Shown here piece by piece: positions 647 to 48,330 of a stretch of 49,694 nucleotides of DNA. Position 1 is the first letter of the stretch. The number at the start of each line of letters is the position of its first letter. The stretch is taken from the IMG/VR virus record IMGVR_UViG_3300028274_000012, positions 1 through 49,694 of that record; one strand, written 5' to 3'. A model generated the notes under the pieces. The model saw only the letters and a list, made by a program, of their open reading frames with translations. It did not search any database and was not told where the DNA came from. Origin of the DNA: a virus. Lineage: Duplodnaviria > Caudoviricetes. Made by a program: the position numbers and the translations under genes.

Positions 647-3600
647 ATGCCAGATTATACTTTTGACATAACTTCTAGTAGCATAGCAGCTAACATAACT
701 GAAGAAACTACAGCAGTTGAAGTAGCTGAAAATGTTTTAGAAGTAAATATAACTGAAAGTACTTTAGCAGCTGGGTTATCTGAAGATACCCTAACAACAA
801 ATATAACCACTGATTCACTGGATGTTATAATTGCTGAAGGGTATACTTTTGCGGTTTCTGGTACAACTTCGCTTAGTCTTGGTACAGTTGGTATTAACAC
901 AGTTGCAATTACGTCTGATGGAGGAGTTGACGATGTAACTCTTCCGGTGGCTACAAACGCTTCCGCAGGGATGGCTTCATCAGCACATATAACTAAACTT
1001 GAAGGTATACCATCTGATGCTACCGCTGATCAAACTTCTATTGTAGGAATATCCGGGACACTTGCGGAGTTTAATACTGCGTTGTCAGATGGGACTTTTG
1101 CAACTGGTGGAGGAACTGTAACAGGTACGAATACTGGGGTGAATACTGGAGATAATACTGTATGTACTTCTGGTACAGCAACAACTGCTACGACACTGGA
1201 AACCCCGAGAACCATTGGAGGAGTAGCATTCGATGGTAGTGCTAATATAAACCTTTCGGGAGTTAATATTATAGGTGATCAAGATACCACTGGAAATGCA
1301 TCCACTGCGACTACCGCAACTACAGTTTCAGACAACGCAATAACGCTAAGTAAGATGGCTTCAGGAACTACCGGGAATCTATTAACTTATGATACTCTTG
1401 GTGATCCAGCTTATGTTACAACCGGGTCAGCAACACAGGTATTAACAAGTAACGGTGTTGGAGCAGCTCCGACATTTCAAACAATTACTGCTTCACACGA
1501 TGTCGTGACTTTGAATACTACGGCGACTAATGGTGGGCTAAGTTTAGATGTTCAGGAGTTAAATTTTCGTGCGGCAACTGATGCTCAAACTGGTTATGCT
1601 ACTGCCGCACATATTCAAGCTATAACAGCAAATACAGCGAAAGTAACTAATTCTACTCATACCGGGGATGTTACTGGGTCAACTACGCTGACAATAGATA
1701 AGACTGCTATTACCGGACAAGATTTAGTAACCGCTTTAGGCACTGATTACGTTGTAATTTCAGATACTACAGATAGTGGAAATTTGAAAAAAGCTTTAAT
1801 TTCAGATGTTGCTAATGCTGGTGGTGAGACTGGTATATATTGGTTACTTGCAATGACCGACTATTGGGCGTCACCAATGACTGATTATTGGGATTCAGTA
1901 ATGGGTATATCAGTGAATGTAGTTTTAGAAGAAGGTGATGTAACTGAAACTACTGTGTCTGTTGTACCGGAAACTGGAACAAGTGCAGTGCTGGCATCGG
2001 CTTCGACTTTAAGAGCGGGTTTACTTTCAAAAGCTAAATTTGATGAGATTGAAGCAAATACTGCAAAGGTTGGTGCTGCAACATCTCTTTCTATGGGAAC
2101 TATTGGAGCGAATACTATAGCGATTACCTCCGATGGTGGAGTGGATGATGTAACTTTACCTGCTGCAACAGTTACTACAGCAGGAGTTGCAACTGCCGCA
2201 CAGATAACAGCTATTAGTCATACTGCCGGGATGGTAAGGGATAATGCTAATCCTTTATTAGGTTTGGATTTACATTCAACTGCTATAACTTCGCATTCAC
2301 TAGTTACTGTTGCGTCTGATGACTATATACTAATATCAGATACTAGTCATTCAGAGGTATTAAAAAAGATTTTAGTTAGCGATATACAAGCTAGTGGAAG
2401 TTTTGAGCTTGTGGATGATACTACTCCGGAGTTAGGTGGAACTTTACAGTTTGGTGCTAATGAGGCTACGGGACTTACCGGAAATAGGATGCTTGAGCAA
2501 TCAGCTGGTTCAGTAGTTTTTGGTTATAATACAGAATTTCCTGGTTATACATTAGTTTTGGGGAATGATTATGGCACAGTTCAATTTGGTGAGTGGATTG
2601 CAAGTGAGTTGTATTTTAGTCATCTTATAGACGATTTTGGAACACTAGGTATATCAGGTAAAAGTCTTAAAAATATTCATACAAGTAAAATAACTTTAGG
2701 TGGAGTAGAACGGTCGACCTGGCCGACAGTTACTGGTGGTCATGATCCGGTGACTTTAGCCGCTTCGGCTTTAGAGGAAGGTTTAGTTCTTTCAACACAG
2801 TCATTATCTTATAATAATCCGGCTAAAATTAAAATTGGTATTATAGGTGACTCACTTGCTGATGCGTTTATACCTTTAGGTTCGTGGGTTACTTACTTTA
2901 AAGCTTATGCAGAGCAGACTGGTGTTCAGATTACAATAGCAAATACGGCTGTTGGTGGGGCTTCTCTTGTAGCTAGATCTGGTACAACAAGTATATTAAC
3001 AACAGATACACATGGTTGGAATGGTGCTGCGGAAACTGATACTCAGTATGAAACTATTGTAGACTTTGCTCCTGATATAGTGTTTATAATAGTAGGTGCT
3101 AATGATACTTTAACACAACCTGCTACGGGGTATAATATAACTACTATAAAAACAGCGTCTAGAACATTAACTGATAGTTTAGATGCTGCGTTACCGGGAG
3201 TTAAATTAGTATACTTATCAGCTATTGGCTATGATAAGTATGATGCTGTATTAAATACTGATGGTGTTTTAATAGCTAATGTAGCTGCTTGGACACAAAA
3301 TAGTATAGTGCCGTATTTAATGGATGGTGTAGCACATCTTAATTTAGACGCTGGTGCATTTAATGTTAGAATAGGTGGTAATATATCACCAAATCCCTTT
3401 TTAACTGATGCTATATCTGTGTTGAATAGATATAATTATACTCAGTGGGATGCGTTAGATACTCACTTTAGAGCAGCTTCTACTGTAGATGCTGTAATAG
3501 ATATAAATATGTGGGATATTTATAGAGCTGGTAGTACATATGATACTGCTCATCCTGGTGAGTTTGGTGCTAGAATGATGGCAGTGCCTGTAGCTCAATG

Positions 3601-22181: not shown

Positions 22182-25100
22182 ATGCCTACGTTAAAACTTG
22201 GTAATTTACCTGAACTTGATTTTAGTGGTGAAAAGTTTGGAAGTCTTCCGGGGTTGGATTTTGGAGAAAAAGAAGAAAAAGAAGAAAAGGGACTTTTCTC
22301 TAAGTTTGGTGTACCAGAATTAAAATTTGGGGAACCTACTGAAAAGTTAAATATTCCTGCGTCTAATCAAATTCCTGACATTGAAGGTGAGATAGCTATA
22401 CCAGTGGAAACACCGGGTCAAGTAGCTAAACAAAACGAAGTTACTCCTTTGATGAAAAGTATAGCTGATCCGTTTGGTGAGTTCGAAGACGAACTTGGTA
22501 AGATTAAGCAAAGAACTCCTGAAGAGCAGCTAATTGTACCACCTACTGGAGAAGAGCTTAACATAGAAAATAAAAGTTTAACACAGCAGAATGAAGAAAT
22601 AACTGATATTGCTGAAAAGCTTCAGTTTAAAGATAATGATTTAAGGGGTATGAGATTAGCACTGGAAAAAGAAAAACCTGAAAATAAAGAACAACTTGAA
22701 GGATACAACGCTAGAGTTGGTATGTATAAACAACTAGCTAATGATTTTACTACCAGTGTGAAAGAGTATAATAAAAGACTTAAAGTTATTGGTAAACAGA
22801 GTGAAGATTTTAACGCTAAAGTAAAAGAACATAATGATTTTTTAGCTCTTCCAGGACCTGAAGAATCAGTAAGAAAGAAGCTTCAAGGAGTAAAAGAAGT
22901 TGTTGCTAATGTGGTTGCAGGTGCCGCTACGTTTATACCAGTTGGGTTAGCTAAATACGGTACTATTGGAGCTTATAGGCTTGCGGATTATTTAGGTTTA
23001 TACCCCGAAAGTGAAAGAGTTTCAGATGAAGTTATAGAAGACTATAAAAAATTTATTGATGATAATGTTCCTAGTCTTGGCGGAGCTTTAACAGCTAAAA
23101 CGCAACTTGGTCAGAAAGCTCTTGAGAAAATTGCAGTACCTTTTGAAAAGTTACATGATTTTGCTAAAAACAAAGCTAGATTTATAGATGGAGAAAAGTA
23201 TCCGAATCTTAAAGAATTTGCTACGTTTGGTGTTGAAGTCTTTATGTTTGGTCTTGTTGGTAAAGGTGCTAGAGATGTTAAAGCAAAAATTAAAGAACAT
23301 ACGAAGATGTATGAGATTATAGTAGAAACTATTGAAAGAGATATTCCTCCAGAAATGATGCAAAGTGAGCTGATTCGAAAAGGGGTTGATAAAGGTATTG
23401 CAGCTGAAATAGCTATAGCTATGAAAGAAAGACCGGTTACTGCTATTATTAGTGAGAAGGTTAAGATACAAAAAGATAAACCAGTTATTGCTGCACTTAA
23501 AGAAAGACTTGGTATGGAACCAGGGGAGCAGGTTCAAGTTGGTAAAAAGTTTGACAGAAAAGTAGATTTGAAAGTAAAAAAATTACCGGAACTTGATTTT
23601 AAAAAACCAGTGAAGAAAGAAGTAAAGGCTGAAGTAAAAACTGAAGTAAAAGAAGTTAAATCTGATCTTTCAGGAGAAGCTTTTGATATAGCCGAGAAAG
23701 CAGCAGATGTTAAAAGAGCAAAAGTAGTACCAACTAAAGACCTTAAACCTGAACAAAAAACTTTTATAGAAAAGAGAGTTCAAAAGCTTGGTAGTCTTGA
23801 AAAAGTTAAAAAAGAGTATAAAAATGATGATCCTGTAAGTATCTTTGCCAGAGAAACTGCGGCGAAGGTTTTTGGTGGAGATGCTGATATTAAGGGATTA
23901 AAACCTACGATTAAAACCACCCCGTTGTCCACTGGGTTTGAGGTTCAGGGCAGGGGTATGGATAAAGCTGGTAAGCTTGTAGGGTTTAAACATAAATGGC
24001 AAGCAACTAGAGATATGAAAGTTGCAGCTCGGAAGTCTGGTGCTGATCCGGTGGAGTATGATGTGGTTGAAGGTGACAGTGGATGGACTTTTCAGAGAAG
24101 AGAGATTAAGGTTGAAAAGAAAGTAAAAATTCCTAGTAAATTATACAGAGGTTATGCTAAAGGAAAAGAGTTTAGAGGTGAAGGAAGCCCTATTTTCTTT
24201 TCAGTAAATAAAAAATCAGCTACTGGTTTTGCTAATGCGTCTAAACATCTTGGAGAGCCGGTAGTTGGAGAATATTCTGTTGACATTAAGAACCCAAAAG
24301 TATATTCAGGTCCACTAGAGAAAGGTAGATCTACTTTTGCTACGGGTAGTAAACAAGTTAAAGAACTTAAAAAAGAGGGTTATGATAGTGCGGTTTATGT
24401 TGAAAATGGAGTAGTTAAAGAAGTAATAACTTTTAATAAAAACCAGGTAATTAAAAAAGAAAAAGTTTTTTCTTTACAAACTCTCGGAAAACCCGGTTAT
24501 AAGAAAGGTAAAATAGTTCCTTGGAAGATGGAAAGCTTTGCTATAAAAGCTGCTGAAAAAGCCGGTGAAAATTGGGAGGTTAAAAAACTTGGTGAAAAAT
24601 CTTTTGTAATTGAAAAGTCGGGAGAAAGGTCAAAAATTGACCAAAAGTCTGAGAATATAATTGACGAAGCGAAAAGAGTACCAACAGAGCCACCATTGGA
24701 TTATAAGCCAATAGGAATTTATAACAAGAATTCTGGTATGATTTTTAAGCCGTCAGTAGAAGAAATTGGAAGCTTTACAAATCCTCTAACTTTACATTTT
24801 GACGGGACACATAGTGAGTTAGTAAACGCAGTTGATTTTAAATTAGCTTTAGATGATACAGCTGGGATGAAAAAAGCTTTAATTGATTTAGGCTATGATA
24901 GTATACAGTTTGTTAAGATTAAATACGGTAAAGTTTATTATAATGGGGATAAGATTAGTATTAAAAAGCCGGGATTAAAAGTTGAAAAGCCAAGTAGAAC
25001 TGTAACAACAAAAGAGATAGAAGAAGTCCTACAGTTTGTCCCTGAAGTTCCTGAATCAGTGGTAGAAATTGATCCTAAAACACAAACCCCGTATCAGCAA

Positions 25101-28100
25101 TTAAAGTTTCTTGGAAAAAAATACAAAATAGGTACTAGTCGAAGTTATTATATGTTAAACACCTGGGTTGATCGTTTAACAGAAGCTGGAGCGACTACAG
25201 AAGAAATAGCTCGCGTAACAGCTTGGAAAGATACTGTTAATAGAAGTAGAGACAAATGGAAAAAATTAAATGATGATGCTTTAGCAAAATTTAATAAAAA
25301 GAAAGAAAAGAAAGTAGAGAAAATAATAAAAAGTAGTAAAGATTTATATGGTACTGGTAAAATAGCAGCATCTATTAATCCAACATTACAAAAGAAACAG
25401 GCTTTAAAAGATATTCTTGGTGTTAATCCTACAAGAACTATTGTTGGAGAGCTTTTACAAAATTCGTTTGATGCTATGAGAGACTATACTACAAAACCAT
25501 TAGAAGTATATATAAATGATGGTATTTTAGCTATGACAGACTACGGTAAAGGTATGTCACCGCAAATTGCAACATCTGATCTTGTAACTTTATTTGAGCA
25601 AGGTACTAAAGGTGCTGAAGATATGGGCGGTTTTGGTCAAGCTAAACTTGCGTTTATGGGTTGGCCTGATTCGTTTGATATTGTTACTGTAGGTATTGAT
25701 CCTACAACAGGAAAGAAAGTACAAAGCAAAATCTGGGGTACCAGTGAAGATTATATGCTTAAGAATAATGTTAATAAAGAAATAAAAGAAGTAGCAGATA
25801 ATAGTAAAACCGGAACTAGAATTATACTTAAAAAGGGGCAAAATTCAATAGGTGAATATGGTATTCAACCACATAGAGTTCTTGCTGAACTAGAAACTTT
25901 TGGTGAAGGACTTAGAACTGGGCAAACAGTAAAAGTAATGAAAGATTTTAAGTCAGATAAAGAACTAAAAGAAACTGGATTAACCCCTGGTATAGATGTT
26001 AAAGTAGTTGATGTTAAATCACCTAAATGGGAAAATATAGATAGTATTTTTGATGTAGAAAAGTTTTCTGTTGAAGGTAGTGATGTAGAGATTAAATTTC
26101 CTAAAACCGAACCGTATGGTTGGTCTGGTGAAGAAATGAAAGACGTAAGAGTAAAAGTATTTAATAAAGGTCTTCTTTTACCTGACGTACCTAAACGTAG
26201 TAGTTTAAACTTTTCTATTGCTAAAAAACCTAATTTTGAAATTGAAATAAATTTTATTAAAACGCCAGAAGCTTCTGATATAGCAAATTATCCTTTTGTT
26301 GTAAATAGAACCACATTAACAGCTAAAGTTGAGTCAAAAGTTAAAAGTGCGATACGTAAAACTTTATCTGAATTAAATGAAAAAATTGCTGATACAACTA
26401 AAAAAGATATACAAAGACTTTTTAATTCAGCACCAAAAATAAGTGATACAAAATTTATTATTCCTATTACAGGATCTACTGTAGAAGCTGTAAAAGTGTT
26501 AAAGCAGTATCCAAAGATGTTTAGTGAACTTGGTGAAATTACTAAATTACATAGCGATACAATTGGTAAACAGACTAACGTACCCCAACAAAATGTAGCA
26601 ATTACAACTTACGCAGGTGTACACGGTTTTAGACCAAAAAGTGGTATACTTAAAGAGGATTATGTAGTGGTAAATCCGTTTACTTATTTAGATACGTTTT
26701 TAAAAGATGTAGATGGATTACCTTACGGTACAAAAACTATAAATGAATTAACACCGACACAAATTAAAGCAAAAGATAAAGAATTAGAAAGTGCAGCTAT
26801 TGGGTTAATTAGTACACTTACACATGAATACGCTCACACAAATGCAAATGGACATTATTTATCTTTTGTTCAAGAGTTTCATAGAATAGAAAGAGATTTA
26901 GGATTTTCAAAACATAAAATGGAGGCACAAGCTTATGAGTTCTTTAAAAAATACGAATCAGATATCAGACACGCTACAAAAGCTCTCGAAGATATACAAA
27001 AAGCAGGGACGATCTCTCCGATCTTCTCTGAATATGTCCCTGAACAACGAAGGGTTGGACAATTCTCCGACGAGAAAAAATCTACAACAGATGTTGAAAG
27101 ACATGGACAAGTACGGGATAGAGGTGGAGTAAAACTTACCTCCGGGTTTGATCCAGTTGAAGCTGTAAAAGCAATTCGGGACCTGGGAAAAGATATAAAA
27201 GCAGCAATTCCACACCTGGAAACTTTAGGAAAACATTATTATACAGGTGAAAAACAGCGGTACTTCGATTGGCAGAAAAAGATGAAAGGAGCTCTAGGGG
27301 ATCTGTGGACTAAGGTTAAGAAGTACATAGGTGAAGTTTGGAAAGGGTTAAAAAGACCCTTAAAAAATGAAAAGGGGGCTGTTACAATCCCGGTTAGAGA
27401 AATAAAAGCAGCTACAAAAAGAAACATTAAAAGAACTAAAAAATTACTAGATGAAAAACTTGGAGCACTCACTACCAGGCTTGAAAAGATAAGTCCAAGT
27501 ATAAAGAATAAAATAATCGAATTTGAGTTAGACACCGGGGTTAAGGTAGAAAAAATAGCTAAAGATGTAATGCTTCCGTTTATAGAAAAAACTACTAAAA
27601 TGTCTAAGAAAGATTATGATACTTTTGATCTTGCGAGGAAAGAGCGGAACAAAAAAGAAATAGATGATTTGGTAGAGAAGTACGGGATGGAAGAAGAGTA
27701 TAAAAAAGTTCGGGGTATGCTTGATGCTATTGGTAACGAAGCTAGAGCAGTTGGATATAAGTTTAATTATTTAAAAGATTACCATCCTCGGCAGATTATA
27801 GATTTTGAAGGTCTTATGGATTATTTGTATGAGACTGGTAATAGGTCTACGATAGAATTTTTTATTGAAGCTAAAGAGAAAAAACTTGGTAGAAAGCTAA
27901 CTAATGAGGAAGAAATTAAACTTGTAAATTCGTTGTTTAGAGGTTATGCTGATGAAAGAATTACGCTTTCTAAACCGGGACAACTAAAGCTTAGAAAGTT
28001 AAAGAAAATTGGCCCTGAAATAATGGAGTTTTACGGGGATTCTAACAGTGCTCTTTTACGCTATGTCAATGATATAGTTTTAGCAGTAGAAGCTAAAAAA

Positions 28101-29369
28101 CTTTTTGGAGACTATAAAATAGAGGGCCTGGATTTAAACGAAACTATCGGGGCGTATATTTTAAGGGTGTCTAAAGAGAAGAGACTTACCCCGAGCCAGG
28201 AACTTGAACTAAGGTCAATGCTTCATGCTAGATTTAACCCCGTTGGAACTAGTGGAATTGTTACCACCTTTAAAAACGTAGCTGTGATAGATGTTATGGG
28301 CTCCCCGGCGTCAGCACTTCGGCAAGTCGGTGATATTGGTTGGTCTATGATAGAGAACGGGACTTTTGCTTCAAGTAAAGCTTTTGGTAAGGCAATGGTC
28401 GGTAACTTTATTTCGCAAAAATACGGCTCGGAATTTACAAAAGAAGATCTTGGGATTAGTAAAATTGGGGCGGAATTTAGTGATAAAACTTTGTCTGCAA
28501 AAGCTGTAGATAGTGTATTTAGAGTTATTTGGCTGACGAAAATAGATGCTATTGGGAAAGAGGTGTTAATAAATGCTGCGTATGATATAGCAGTTAGAAA
28601 GGCAAAGAGTAAAGATATTAAGGTTAGAGATGCTTTTATAAATAAACTCATACCTATATTTGAAAATCGAACAGATGCTTTAATGGAAGATTTTAGAAGT
28701 GGGGTAAAATCAAGAGATGTTAAACTTTATCTACTAAGAAAATTATCAGAATATCAACCTGCTACGCTTTCTGAACTCCCGCAGGGGTTTATAGAAGGTG
28801 GAAATGCTAGAATAGCTTATATGCTTAAATCTTTTGACTTGAAAAAGTTTGATGTATATAGAAGAAAGGTTTTTCAGCAAATAGCCAAGCCTGGTACCAG
28901 AATACAAGGTATTAAAAACCTGTTTAAAATAGCATTCTTTTTAACCTTAATGGAAGCTACAGGGGATACTTTAATAGACTTGTTTCTTGGTAAACCTATT
29001 AATATATCAGACACTGTTGTGGGTAGAATTTCGGGGCTGGCTATATCACGATATACTACGAGTAAGATTAGAAGAGAAGGTCCCGGGGCACTGCTTGAAC
29101 AAATTCTTCCTCCTACACAGTTTATAAATTCTATATTCAGGGATGTGGTTTCAGCGGGTGACGGGAAGGGTCTTGAATTTACTAAGTCTATCCCGTTGGT
29201 AGGAAAGTTCTATTATTACCGTTGGGGTAAGGGACTTGAAAAAGTTGAAAAAGATAGAGAGAAGAATCAGAGTAAGAATGCTATTAGCAGAATTAGAAAG
29301 ATTCAAAAACCTAAGGGTAAAAATGCTATTAGAAAAATTCAAAGAAAGAAAAGAAAAATTTCAAGATAA
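22182..29369 (+). CDS. giant polyvalent internal virion/ejection protein (ART-like, GHKL ATPase and HExxH metallopeptidase motifs)
   Basis: 2395 aa, last late gene. Motifs LYRG...IFFS...A..FA...IKNP...GYDS...EVITF; ELLQNSFDA, DYGKGM, GGFGQA, GTRI; THEYAH....H. Confidence 0.8.
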   Translation: MPTLKLGNLPELDFSGEKFGSLPGLDFGEKEEKEEKGLFSKFGVPELKFGEPTEKLNIPASNQIPDIEGEIAIPVETPGQVAKQNEVTPLMKSIADPFGEFEDELGKIKQRTPEEQLIVPPTGEELNIENKSLTQQNEEITDIAEKLQFKDNDLRGMRLALEKEKPENKEQLEGYNARVGMYKQLANDFTTSVKEYNKRLKVIGKQSEDFNAKVKEHNDFLALPGPEESVRKKLQGVKEVVANVVAGAATFIPVGLAKYGTIGAYRLADYLGLYPESERVSDEVIEDYKKFIDDNVPSLGGALTAKTQLGQKALEKIAVPFEKLHDFAKNKARFIDGEKYPNLKEFATFGVEVFMFGLVGKGARDVKAKIKEHTKMYEIIVETIERDIPPEMMQSELIRKGVDKGIAAEIAIAMKERPVTAIISEKVKIQKDKPVIAALKERLGMEPGEQVQVGKKFDRKVDLKVKKLPELDFKKPVKKEVKAEVKTEVKEVKSDLSGEAFDIAEKAADVKRAKVVPTKDLKPEQKTFIEKRVQKLGSLEKVKKEYKNDDPVSIFARETAAKVFGGDADIKGLKPTIKTTPLSTGFEVQGRGMDKAGKLVGFKHKWQATRDMKVAARKSGADPVEYDVVEGDSGWTFQRREIKVEKKVKIPSKLYRGYAKGKEFRGEGSPIFFSVNKKSATGFANASKHLGEPVVGEYSVDIKNPKVYSGPLEKGRSTFATGSKQVKELKKEGYDSAVYVENGVVKEVITFNKNQVIKKEKVFSLQTLGKPGYKKGKIVPWKMESFAIKAAEKAGENWEVKKLGEKSFVIEKSGERSKIDQKSENIIDEAKRVPTEPPLDYKPIGIYNKNSGMIFKPSVEEIGSFTNPLTLHFDGTHSELVNAVDFKLALDDTAGMKKALIDLGYDSIQFVKIKYGKVYYNGDKISIKKPGLKVEKPSRTVTTKEIEEVLQFVPEVPESVVEIDPKTQTPYQQLKFLGKKYKIGTSRSYYMLNTWVDRLTEAGATTEEIARVTAWKDTVNRSRDKWKKLNDDALAKFNKKKEKKVEKIIKSSKDLYGTGKIAASINPTLQKKQALKDILGVNPTRTIVGELLQNSFDAMRDYTTKPLEVYINDGILAMTDYGKGMSPQIATSDLVTLFEQGTKGAEDMGGFGQAKLAFMGWPDSFDIVTVGIDPTTGKKVQSKIWGTSEDYMLKNNVNKEIKEVADNSKTGTRIILKKGQNSIGEYGIQPHRVLAELETFGEGLRTGQTVKVMKDFKSDKELKETGLTPGIDVKVVDVKSPKWENIDSIFDVEKFSVEGSDVEIKFPKTEPYGWSGEEMKDVRVKVFNKGLLLPDVPKRSSLNFSIAKKPNFEIEINFIKTPEASDIANYPFVVNRTTLTAKVESKVKSAIRKTLSELNEKIADTTKKDIQRLFNSAPKISDTKFIIPITGSTVEAVKVLKQYPKMFSELGEITKLHSDTIGKQTNVPQQNVAITTYAGVHGFRPKSGILKEDYVVVNPFTYLDTFLKDVDGLPYGTKTINELTPTQIKAKDKELESAAIGLISTLTHEYAHTNANGHYLSFVQEFHRIERDLGFSKHKMEAQAYEFFKKYESDIRHATKALEDIQKAGTISPIFSEYVPEQRRVGQFSDEKKSTTDVERHGQVRDRGGVKLTSGFDPVEAVKAIRDLGKDIKAAIPHLETLGKHYYTGEKQRYFDWQKKMKGALGDLWTKVKKYIGEVWKGLKRPLKNEKGAVTIPVREIKAATKRNIKRTKKLLDEKLGALTTRLEKISPSIKNKIIEFELDTGVKVEKIAKDVMLPFIEKTTKMSKKDYDTFDLARKERNKKEIDDLVEKYGMEEEYKKVRGMLDAIGNEARAVGYKFNYLKDYHPRQIIDFEGLMDYLYETGNRSTIEFFIEAKEKKLGRKLTNEEEIKLVNSLFRGYADERITLSKPGQLKLRKLKKIGPEIMEFYGDSNSALLRYVNDIVLAVEAKKLFGDYKIEGLDLNETIGAYILRVSKEKRLTPSQELELRSMLHARFNPVGTSGIVTTFKNVAVIDVMGSPASALRQVGDIGWSMIENGTFASSKAFGKAMVGNFISQKYGSEFTKEDLGISKIGAEFSDKTLSAKAVDSVFRVIWLTKIDAIGKEVLINAAYDIAVRKAKSKDIKVRDAFINKLIPIFENRTDALMEDFRSGVKSRDVKLYLLRKLSEYQPATLSELPQGFIEGGNARIAYMLKSFDLKKFDVYRRKVFQQIAKPGTRIQGIKNLFKIAFFLTLMEATGDTLIDLFLGKPINISDTVVGRISGLAISRYTTSKIRREGPGALLEQILPPTQFINSIFRDVVSAGDGKGLEFTKSIPLVGKFYYYRWGKGLEKVEKDREKNQSKNAISRIRKIQKPKGKNAIRKIQRKKRKISR
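24624..24642 (+). repeat. polar palindrome copy 3 (inside the giant gene)
   Basis: GAAAGGTCAAAAATTGACC. Confidence 0.8.
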
Positions 29370-37181: not shown

Positions 37182-37314
37182 TTTCCTCCTTTAAAGATTA
37201 CCCAGAGAAACCGGGGTTATTTAATTAGTTTTCTATGCGCTGACATAATAGCTAATTTCAATGATTCTCTTTTGGGCTTCTCTGGGTAAAAAGTTTTTTG
37301 TGTGGAGAGTGAAC

Positions 37315-37353
37315 TCACCTTCCTCTGCTTTTATTTCGGTCAGTCTTGTTCAT
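37315..37353 (-). CDS. 12-aa micro-ORF MNKTDRNKSRGR (element copy A)
   Basis: AAGGAG SD 8 nt upstream of ATG; 21 bp shared with copy B. Confidence 0.4.
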   Translation of the reverse strand: MNKTDRNKSRGR

Positions 37354-37371
37354 GGTAATTTCTCCTTTTAC

Positions 37372-37410
37372 GGTTAAGCGGCGTAGCCCGTCTTCAATAA
37401 TTTATTAGCC
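37372..37410 (-). mobile_element. truncated attC-like site (R' missing)
   Basis: GGCTAAT, 5-nt spacer, then ATT(G)AAG(A)CGG-loop-CCGCTTAA. Confidence 0.45.
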
Positions 37411-37422
37411 GTGCTTGCTGCG

Positions 37423-37476
37423 AGCTAATACGCATATCACCGGCGCGTAGCTGCCCGGTGTATTGGCTGATTATTT
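37423..37476 (-). mobile_element. attC-like site, AAT/ATT type
   Basis: AAATAAT (contains the upstream gene's TAA), CAGCC, AAT(A)CACCGG...CCGGTGATA, TGCGT, ATTAGCT. Confidence 0.6.
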
Positions 37477-37647
37477 TTCCTGCTCCTCTACTGAAACGCT
37501 GTCGAAGACGAATCGGTCATCATCATCAGGAATATCAACAGTGGTAAAAGTTGTTTTGGTTTTTATAGATGGCATTACCCCGGTTGATGTGTATTCGGTG
37601 TATGCCTCTGCCTTGTTCGTTCTGGTTATACGAATTACAATTTTCAT
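37471..37647 (-). CDS. cassette-like hypothetical protein
   Basis: GGAGG SD before ATG 37647; its stop codon lies in the R'' box of an attC-like site. Confidence 0.6.
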   Translation of the reverse strand: MKIVIRITRTNKAEAYTEYTSTGVMPSIKTKTTFTTVDIPDDDDRFVFDSVSVEEQEK

Positions 37648-37662
37648 CGAAGCCTCCAAGAA

Positions 37663-37791
37663 AAATAATGTCGGGGATCACCGATTTAAAGCCCTTCCAC
37701 ACTTTGAGCAGAAATCGAAACCCTTTTTTTGCCATTTCTTATGGTAGGAACGAGCGCAGGGCTTTAAACTCGTTGCATCTGAGTATTGGAC
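37663..37791 (-). mobile_element. long attC-like site, AAT/ATT type (129 bp)
   Basis: GTCCAAT, 5-nt spacer, GAT(G)CAACGA(G)TTTAAAGCCCT...AGGGCTTTAAATCGGTGATC, 6-nt spacer, ATTATTT. Confidence 0.65.
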
Positions 37792-37863
37792 GGCCCTTGG
37801 ATCAGGGCATCCACAGTCCCATAAGAAGGTATTATGTTTTTTGCACCACGGTTCATTATTCAT
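37678..37863 (-). CDS. Cys-rich hypothetical protein overlapping an attC-like site
   Basis: 61-aa ORF with C..H, CGC and C..C motifs. Confidence 0.45.
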   Translation of the reverse strand: MNNEPWCKKHNTFLWDCGCPDPRAVQYSDATSLKPCARSYHKKWQKKGFDFCSKCGRALNR

Positions 37864-37870
37864 TTAGTCC

Positions 37871-37936
37871 GTCCAATGTTAAAGTTGAGTGGTGCGGTAA
37901 TTTATCAACACTTTCCGCACCAAGGATTTGTTATGA
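37871..37936 (-). mobile_element. degenerate attC-like site
   Basis: TCATAAC...TGGTGCGG/CCGCACCA...ATTGGAC; the two arms are out of register. Confidence 0.35.
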
Positions 37937-38138
37937 TTTCATCACAACCTGAACACTTGCAAGTATTAGCATCCATCTCCAACTTTTTATTAGGAGACTC
38001 CTCTTCGAAGCTAACAACCTTTAGCAAACCTCTTTTTGTCGAAGCATCAGTGTAAAGTAAAATATCCAAGTTGTCGGGATTCATCCACTTGGGACCTAAG
38101 TCATTTTCGTTAAATTCCAATTCTACTAAAATTTTCAT
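37905..38138 (-). CDS. cassette-like hypothetical protein
   Basis: AGGAGG SD overlaps the R' box of the attC-like site at 38145-38203. Confidence 0.65.
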   Translation of the reverse strand: MKILVELEFNENDLGPKWMNPDNLDILLYTDASTKRGLLKVVSFEEESPNKKLEMDANTCKCSGCDEIITNPWCGKC

Positions 38139-38298
38139 AAGTCCTCCTAATGCAAAGATAAGTAGTGAGCGAAGCGATACCTATCTTCATCTTTTTATTG
38201 GTGGCGTTATGCCGCTTTTCTGTTTTGTCTACAGTCACCGCAGCTTTTAACTCTGTTGCAAGTTTTAAAACTTTTTGTCTAAACGTCATAATAACCAC
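38110..38298 (-). CDS. hypothetical protein running through an attC-like site
   Basis: GAGGTGG SD suits an internal ATG at 38289; the 3' part overlaps the hairpin and the next gene. Confidence 0.4.
   Translation of the reverse strand: MVIMTFRQKVLKLATELKAAVTVDKTEKRHNATNKKMKIGIASLTTYLCIRRTYENFSRIGI
38145..38203 (-). mobile_element. 59-bp attC-like site, AAT/ATT type
   Basis: CACCAAT, AAAAA, GAT(G)AAG(A)TAG...GCTTCGC...CTACTTATC, TTTGC, ATTAGGA; two extrahelical bases on one arm. Confidence 0.65.
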
Positions 38299-38316
38299 CT
38301 CTTTAAATTATATATA

Positions 38317-38918: not shown

Positions 38919-38986
38919 TTCCTTTTCCTTGAAGTTCAATTTAATACATCACATTGTTATATTATTTGGTTGAATGGGGAGTGAAC

Positions 38987-39019
38987 TCACCTTCCTCTGT
39001 GTTCGGTCACAGCAGTCAT
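38987..39019 (-). CDS. 10-aa micro-ORF MTAVTEHRGR (element copy B)
   Basis: GGAGAAGGA upstream; same RGR-TGA end as copy A. Confidence 0.35.
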   Translation of the reverse strand: MTAVTEHRGR

Positions 39020-39114
39020 CCGTTCGTATCCTTCTCCCCACACAAAAGTGTAAGTATTACTACTTACTTAGTAACCCTTCTGGGTGCGCCGAAGCGTGAA
39101 GGGTGTTGTTAAGC

Positions 39115-39642
39115 TTAATAAAGCAAGCTCTTTCTAATTCCACCAAGTTTAACTTTGGAATTAAACTTACCTTTGTACTCCTCAATAGCCACATCTACAT
39201 CAACTTCAATTCCAATCCAGATTCCCTCTTCTAATGCCTGAAGAATAACAGATGGAGTTGACATATCTATGTCGAGGATTTTACTGAACTCAGAAAGAGC
39301 ATTAATTTTCCACTGGCGTTTTGTGGACTTTCCTGAAGGGGTCATCAGATCTTCATCGCCGGGCCTGGGCAGAGAATTAACATACATTACATAAGCCCCG
39401 TCGATAGGTGTTTCATCATCGGATAATACTCCCCCGTTGTCGTGCAAGCAGATACTCCAGATAATGCTACAGGTTGCGGGGACAAATGATACCTTTGTAA
39501 CCACTCCGTGATAAGTACCATTTGGAACCAGCGGGTCAGCTTTATACTCGTCTTCTACGTTAAAGTTTAATCCACCGAGTGCACCTTCTTCTTCTGGATA
39601 ATTGTCTTCTACTTCTACTTTTGCTGTACTTCCTTTAGCCAT
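39115..39642 (-). CDS. putative single-stranded DNA-binding protein (DUF669-like)
   Basis: PLVP.GTY...V.KV...EEYKG...SKV OB-fold-like pattern; adjacent to the Sak4-like gene. Confidence 0.6.
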   Translation of the reverse strand: MAKGSTAKVEVEDNYPEEEGALGGLNFNVEDEYKADPLVPNGTYHGVVTKVSFVPATCSIIWSICLHDNGGVLSDDETPIDGAYVMYVNSLPRPGDEDLMTPSGKSTKRQWKINALSEFSKILDIDMSTPSVILQALEEGIWIGIEVDVDVAIEEYKGKFNSKVKLGGIRKSLLY

Positions 39643-48045: not shown

Positions 48046-48069
48046 AGTCCGCTCCTAATATTAAATTCA

Positions 48070-48330
48070 TCAGCAGCTTTGCTGCCTGTTGCAATGGTTA
48101 TTATTTCTCAGCCTCACGTCTTCTAAGATTTTAAAAGCTGCTTCAGTATCTCGACTGATCACGAATGAAGGTGGGGAAGGGGCTTCCATTTCGTACATAA
48201 TGCAAGCGAGTACTGCCATTTCACGCATTTCGGATGGGGTAAATTGATTAGCATATATCTGCGCTTTCATTGCGTCTACCATGCAGCGGTAAGCATTATC
48301 TTGGTCATATTTAGCCTTCATGGTTTTCAT
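48070..48330 (-). CDS. hypothetical protein
   Basis: AAGGAG SD. Confidence 0.65.
   Translation of the reverse strand: MKTMKAKYDQDNAYRCMVDAMKAQIYANQFTPSEMREMAVLACIMYEMEAPSPPSFVISRDTEAAFKILEDVRLRNNNHCNRQQSC

Follow-up and report, generated by a model that had tools for sequence, protein, structure and literature searches.

The DNA analysed here, 49,694 nucleotides that we call the window, comprises most of the genome of a tailed phage. Scanning of its 61 open reading frames with PHROGs named a terminase, a portal, a major head protein, a DNA polymerase, a primase and a ligase, together with a Sak4-like annealing protein and a ParB–methyltransferase fusion. A preliminary description of this DNA had held that it encodes no tyrosine recombinase, and none is named among the best five PHROGs families for each of the 61 proteins. 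Some 11 kb of the phage may lie outside the window, because the protein of cassette 1 (Table 1) is also carried by a 61-kb contig. An ORF of 2395 residues at the end of the virion gene block (22182–29369) has no PHROGs family; a 22-nt near-palindromic motif, operator- or promoter-like, occurs in four copies at gene boundaries (29375, 34417, 40875 and 47316); and a 40-nt homopolymer run at the contig end (49637–49676) is probably an assembly artefact.

Four complete attC-like sites lie within 780 bp on the minus (coding) strand of the window. They were located with a geometry scanner that looks for R″, 5 nt, L″ with an extra base at position 4, a loop, L′, 5 or 6 nt, and R′. All four carry AAT/ATT in place of the conserved AAC/GTT, and the change is compensatory on both arms, as had been proposed. 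The three hairpins originally described as complete (S1, S3 and S4) are real and correctly placed, but the site at 37871–37936 that was thought to be degenerate (S2) is complete as well: the R″, at 37995–37989, is the complement of the R′ that precedes it, and L″ contains two extra bases. The supposedly truncated site at 37372–37410, with its 'empty unit' (37429–37367 together), turns out to be a leader of a kind that recurs before genes in other cassettes. Elsewhere in the window the scanner returned four scattered AAT matches and no AAC match.

Table 1. Features of the array and of the second AAT/ATT locus, in window coordinates
Feature	Position	Strand	Remarks
S1, complete attC	38145..38203	-	59 bp, AAT/ATT; R′ overlaps the SD of the next gene
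S2, complete attC	37871..37995	-	125 bp, AAT/ATT
S3, complete attC	37663..37791	-	129 bp, AAT/ATT; breakpoints at R′
S4, complete attC	37423..37476	-	54 bp, AAT/ATT
Cassette 1	37877..38150	-	starts at TT in R′ of S1, stops at A in R′ of S2; ends complementary 7/7
77-aa ORF in cassette 1	37905..38138	-	48-aa phage domain and 29-aa tail
Cassette 2	37669..37876	-	preceded by a different attC in runs X1 and X13
61-aa ORF in cassette 2	37863-37678	-	crosses S3 loop, ends in CxxC motif
Cassette 3	37429..37668	-	directly after S1 in L248 and L249; after cassette 4 in run X21
58-aa ORF in cassette 3	37647-37471	-	stop codon inside R″
Leader	37362..37429	-	complementary R′/R″ ends around a short gene-less stretch, R′-less hairpin with L″/L′, then SD
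12-codon ORF stub	37315..37353	-	follows the leader and runs into a phage repeat; right edge of the block absent from L005
S6, second AAT/ATT locus	48053..48106	-	4-nt first spacer; outside the main array

Such a cluster is not expected by chance. Against the four non-overlapping sites observed, 1500 dinucleotide shuffles of positions 37300–38300 gave two at most; two was also the maximum in 300 shuffles when the best of all 64 triplets was allowed, and no other triplet yields more than two sites per 1 kb anywhere in the window. A hairpin at 39060–39125 on the minus strand starts with an AAC box after a stop codon; it has no matching L boxes and was not scored as attC.

The sites have the anatomy of the attC hairpin as defined in PMC5027507, with R″, spacer, L″, loop, L′, spacer and R′ in order and extrahelical bases on the L″ arm. 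On the coding strand these extra bases fall in the 5′ arm, which the same source describes as the canonical orientation, and on this ground, together with the breakpoints at R′ described below, we rejected the reverse orientation of the cassettes. A covariance model was trained on 48 AAC/GTT sites of canonical type, left from 51 candidates after removal of three near-duplicates. It places four of the AAT/ATT sites at the top of its hits in the window, S4 with 20.0, S6 with 19.6, S1 with 16.5 and S2 with 14.1 bits, the next hit scoring 9.9; the value for S4 is not independent, because the training set was found partly with S4-like arms. S3 was not detected by this model at E ≤ 5. Since the GTT core is treated as a fixed mark of integrons, model-based tools probably under-report ATT arrays, whose scores here are 14–20 bits. 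Folding of the bottom strands, suggested earlier as a check, gave a divided answer: in the predicted structures the R box is closed in S1 and S2 (p about 0.6–0.7) but not in S3 and S4 (0.09). No attI was recognised, and the part of the phage genome covered by the window shows no complete integron, with intI and attI on one element; IntI was not found on any phage record searched. If ATT-core sites are counted as attC, the array is a CALIN in the sense of PMC4889954, with at least two clustered attC sites and no intI nearby.

No Pfam family matches the three cassette ORFs, and no homologue was found for the 61-aa ORF of cassette 2. The complementary cassette ends quoted in the preliminary description are present where it placed them; its stop codon inside R″ and SD overlapping R′ were likewise recovered, and to these we add two ORFs that cross R″ and end inside the loops. 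At S6, L003 and L005 diverge from the window sequence at R′, and L005 continues at 285–630 with another cassette, which has complementary ends and an AAT site of its own. The layout of the leader recurs before genes in L044 (twice), L195 (three times), and L221, L226 and L248 (once each); no viral contig was found with a pattern for the sequence that follows the leader. In our reading the leader may have arisen when a mini-cassette without a gene was joined to a gene, which might be a step towards new cassettes.

The variable block is flanked by an 85-bp structured repeat, present in the window at 38958–39040 and as a half copy at 37292–37345, with further copies at L001 8073–8154 and L005 10168–10240; the loss of the block in L005 ends inside the repeat. 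Its outer stem is conserved and its inner hairpin is compensated, with z values of −2.2 to −4.1 for the RNA fold; it has no match in Rfam, and is possibly a small RNA or a module-exchange repeat. Across 29000–49694 Rfam gave three weak matches (E 3–4), none of them within the array.

Comparison with closely related phages reveals that the array is variable in nature. DNA of the array is present in seawater and marine metagenome runs, and gave no blastn match among 50,697 GenBank phage records. Sister phages that are 98–99% identical to the window nevertheless differ from it at the array. L005 is without the whole block, and the sister L044 has an extra 383-bp cassette at R′ of S4, the joint between window and L044 falling in nine shared letters that span the A–TT step of R′. 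Cassettes 1 and 2 are skipped together in run X15, L248 and L249, a new cassette follows S1 in L255, and in L250, a different phage, an identical S1 is followed by yet another gene. Contigs of seven runs, five of them from 2018 seawater and possibly from one campaign, were compared with L044. The joints 931>1414 and 1653>2037 were seen in them; S1 and S4 are followed by new cassettes, and other attC hairpins stand ahead of cassettes 2, 3 and 4; in run X21 cassette 4 precedes cassette 3, so that the order is reversed. The comparison of gene order between sites in relatives, which had been put forward as a check, therefore finds cassettes added, dropped and reordered.

Of 17 distinct breakpoints, 11 are within 7 nt of an R′ A, where the expected share is 0.06 (p about 4 × 10⁻¹⁰); the count was entered by hand for L044 875–2110 only, leaving aside breakpoints outside this segment and seven loose ends, and it includes both ends of single joints, which are not independent. 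Contigs with loose ends may come from other phages. Six breakpoints are not at R′: two are the ends of a cassette-1 homologue that has diverged, one falls where a gene end has diverged, one is the left edge, one is a deletion at 6 nt of microhomology, and one is a 13-nt slip within the arm of S4. The variant that has lost 13 nt of the right arm of S4 is common (L248 8260–8310, L249, and runs X13, X15, X19 and X21); the loss would fix cassette 3 to the next gene.

A second signature of site-specific exchange comes from the pairing of R boxes. Across 14 cassettes picked by hand, R′ on the upstream side is complementary to R″ on the downstream side at 47 of 56 variable positions, as expected if the sites are recombinant junctions; permutation gave a mean of 21, and in none of 100,000 permutations was the observed value reached. 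Within the window's own sites the complementarity is 4 of 16 variable positions. Both the breakpoints and this permutation rule place the crossover where it is canonically found, after the first base of R′ on the bottom strand. We conclude that the array of the window is real, naturally variable and attC-like in its working, and that it lacks the GTT triplet in a systematic, compensated way.

At its outer edges the block is joined to the flanking DNA by microhomology, and these joins are not of the integrase type. A deletion between direct repeats of 10 bp has removed 505 bp from the window just upstream of S1, and we therefore rejected an insertion of the array into the MTFRQK gene. A special attI-like head upstream of S1 was also rejected, as S1 closes a three-gene unit in the sisters; the corresponding 'head' pattern found 15 loci, seven of which are unrelated chance matches (L243, L244, L246, L252–L254 and L257).

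The longer sites have a second property, in that they encode protein. The domain of the 77-aa ORF is read through R″, and its tail, with two CxxC motifs, is encoded by the loop of S2. We examined 20 phage sites. Among the 15 short ones (48–60 nt) CxxC is never present in the upstream frame, which closes within two codons in 11; in four of the five long ones (124–136 nt) the upstream frame runs through the site and contains one or two CxxC motifs, the other frames containing none. About 48 residues are common to twelve homologues of the cassette-1 protein, which then diverge, ten of them with tails that contain three to five cysteines, and the domain is also found as a stand-alone gene of about 49 aa. 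Among 23 metagenome loci of this family the array is present only in L044 and in L045, which is the window's own contig; many of the others are stand-alone genes of this size without attC. Matches in the ESM Atlas (0.81–0.82) are labelled 'zinc-ribbon', which we take as a lead only. As judged from these sequences, exchange of attC bodies at R″ would account for a common domain with divergent tails, and the long sites would extend the cassette protein in frame by a tail that probably binds zinc. Recombination of the top strand is reported to be much weaker (PMC5027507).

Related motifs were seen in other settings. A cassette-1 homologue at L046 1523–1750 has a CxxC tail and no recognisable attC, perhaps a decayed site of which the coding tail was kept. 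A Cys/His motif resembling PCxHPGCxxHxxHPCExCGR lies inside the loop of an AAT site in L292 (about 2850–3120, minus orientation) and at the end of a phage gene in L231 (about 1845–2207).

AAT/ATT sites are present in other phages. A viral scan with one arm family, in which R′ was left free, gave 50 loci and 45 distinct sites, of which 26 are AAC/GTT, seven AAT/ATT, two AAC/ATT and none AAT/GTT, ten having no R′; the triplets thus covary across the arms (Fisher p 5 × 10⁻⁶). A looser arm pattern, run on 8 of 64 parts of the viral contigs, was set aside: its 120 loci are mostly chance matches and include four AAC-type sites and no AAT site. Arrays of AAT sites occur in phages of unrelated gene context (L195, L198, L221, L226 and L231) and single sites in L199, L204 and L292. 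L221 corresponds to L199 with cassettes added at one R′, one of them encoding a C5 methyltransferase, and unrelated phages have cassette genes in common, L044 with L195 and window 48070–48330 with L226. Arrays are pure with respect to their core: when 44 chosen loci were typed with the covariance model, the 24 with at least two core-typed hits divided into 21 AAC-only, three AAT-only and no mixed loci. In an alignment fitted to the model, the crossover pair is C–G in 97 cases, T–A in 12 and other in one.

A scan of a genome collection with the strict AAT pattern returned four loci, of which two are real; the others, L241 and L242, were rejected as chance matches in coding DNA. One of the real loci, L239, is a phage-like MAG contig. 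The other, L240, comes from a MAG titled delta proteobacterium (G008); its AAT/ATT site is 1.8 kb away from an IntI that is divergent and has an internal deletion. The region L240 7519–10850 has the appearance of a decayed integron with that single AAT/ATT site, its IntI being without about 105 model positions; the site is followed by an antitoxin–toxin-like pair that ends in an AAC box.

G008 belongs to a class of sulfate-reducing deltaproteobacteria, of which we scanned 401 genomes. The AAC/GTT pattern has 190 matches in 122 of the 401 genomes, and the arms and loops, judged by eye only, resemble those of the phage sites. The AAT/ATT pattern has 20 matches, at most one per genome and mostly non-hairpin, and those that resemble true hairpins are confined to G008 and G007, both found beforehand, and G211. 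All five members of the class tested for dsrA have it, and four of five tested for IntI have a full-score one. A search for IntI and AAT-type attC in the host had been suggested; in the inferred host class full-length IntI occurs, and the sites are almost all AAC/GTT. A phage-like AAT site lies inside the genome of G007, and in G241 an S1-like AAT site and a collapsed one occur in a phage-like gene run. The DNA of the array matched only two of the 401 genomes, in short pieces; two short matches in G241 were considered as CRISPR spacers and rejected. The site family and the binned contigs point to this class as the probable host of the phage, and the presence of IntI in it is consistent with use of a host integrase in trans.

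The consequence of the core change can be judged from engineered sites. According to Table 4 of PMC2811028, recombination of attC-ATT with attI1-ATT under IntI1 has a frequency of 1 relative to wild type, and that of attC-ATT with attI1 a relative frequency of 3.1 × 10⁻³; these are rates for attC with attI1, not attC with attC, and to carry them over to phage arrays is to extrapolate. The low rate of ATT with GTT has its cause in strand exchange, which requires a match at the first core base (PMC2811028). As IntI1 recombines ATT pairs at the wild-type frequency, an altered integrase is not needed: the triplet change alters the compatible partner sites, not which enzyme is required. Of the earlier proposal that the phage shuffles small genes with a host integrase, possibly one of altered preference, the changes of content at R′ are thus observed, the host enzyme is likely, and the altered preference can be dispensed with.

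Overall, we favour, with a probability of about 0.75, an integron-type array whose cassettes are gained, lost and reordered at the A–TT step, the likely agent being an ordinary integron integrase that the host supplies in trans. In the infected cell this IntI would bind the folded bottom strands, a cassette would be excised as a circle by recombination between two attC sites, and the circle would be inserted at another ATT site. From the rule that the first core base must match, cassettes with ATT would exchange freely between phage arrays and about 300-fold less with the GTT sites of the host, so that the phages would have a cassette pool largely of their own, with sites descended from the attC family of the host. 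Such insulation of the phage pool from that of the host is likely, and would fit both the purity of the arrays and the rarity of ATT in hosts.

Alternatively, the cassettes might be supplied and shuffled by a specialised integron of the host that has an attI of ATT type, or by an IntI whose core preference is altered, the phage only sampling a bacterial pool. The AAT/ATT site near the deleted IntI of L240 could be a trace of such a system, as could the further clear AAT site in G211; but IntI1 needs no change to recombine ATT pairs (PMC2811028), more than one AAT pattern match was seen in none of the 401 genomes, the next cassette in L240 ends in an AAC box, and the cargo of phage AAT arrays, DNA methyltransferases included, is phage-like. 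We regard this explanation as unlikely. Slightly less probable still is a recombinase of the phage itself, encoded in the unseen part of a genome that may exceed the window, or of a helper element. Two phages with AAT arrays do encode a tyrosine recombinase 2–3 kb from the array, but both enzymes resemble ordinary phage integrases and score 23 and 43 bits on an IntI model whose cut-off is 265. PF00589 has no match in any of five partial sister records and is absent from three of five other AAT phage records, and the site family matches that of host integrons.

The sites might, finally, be decayed attC relics that now serve as expression signals, the variation being due to microhomology recombination by the Sak4-like annealing protein. 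The gene for this protein and an exonuclease gene are 1.5–3 kb from the array, the outer edges and some internal joins use repeats of 6–10 nt, and the joint between window and L044 falls in nine shared letters. Several joints share only 3–5 letters, however, and most fall on the A–TT step; the reversed order and the complementary cassette ends point to circular intermediates; and the crossover pair has been kept as C–G or T–A with the single exception noted above for the fitted alignment. To this reading we give the least weight of the three.

The preferred reading, an integron-type array worked by a host integrase, can be extended further, although here we are tentative and think the extended version rather more likely to be wrong than right. 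By one change of the crossover base, phages of sulfate-reducing bacteria would use the host IntI while largely excluding host cassettes, defence genes among them, and keeping their own cassettes out of host attI; gene-less ATT mini-cassettes, fused as leaders to phage genes, would seed new cassettes; and attC loops would be an exchangeable library of zinc-ribbon tails for the proteins of the phages. If true, this would be a natural orthogonal recombination system with a visible route of cassette creation. Integrons reportedly store anti-phage genes (bioRxiv 10.1101/2024.07.02.601686 and 10.1101/2024.07.02.601719); phages, for their part, appear to turn the integron machinery to their own accessory genes, DNA methyltransferases included. 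A natural ATT pool would mean that a homology rule known from the laboratory can split one recombination system into bacterial and viral gene pools, and leaders and coding loops would be concrete intermediates for how cassettes are made.

Phage CALINs are already known; what is new here is the natural arrays with an AAT/ATT core. Those described in PMC9892861 are likewise attC clusters with small ORFs, no intI and in some cases methyltransferase cargo, for which a host IntI was proposed, but the six sites tested there are AAC/GTT (Table S3), five of them recombining with attI1. The present arrays differ in their core, in exchange seen in natural populations, and in long sites that encode protein tails. 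The ATT mutants of attC and attI1 engineered by Frumerie et al. (PMC2811028) also have the G1>A change, compensated on both arms, but are a laboratory construct, whereas the pool described here is natural and extends over several phages. Integron attC sites of the probable host class share the L″/L′ arm family, the loops and the orientation to genes, and differ in their AAC/GTT core (the 190 pattern matches), the ATT form being rare. The leader begins like a gene-less (ORF-less) integron cassette, with complementary ends; in contrast to such cassettes, its hairpin has no R′ and is fused to the downstream gene, and a second site, whose R″ matches, closes the whole unit. In our searches of the openly accessible literature, which included look-ups of terms in PMC8352920 and PMC8618304, neither natural arrays of AAT/ATT type nor attC loops that code for protein had been described.

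In distant relatives of the phage, with Sak4 60–74% identical, clusters of AAC/GTT attC sites are found on the strand opposite to Sak4, at L011 2159–2764 and L027 9563–9843.
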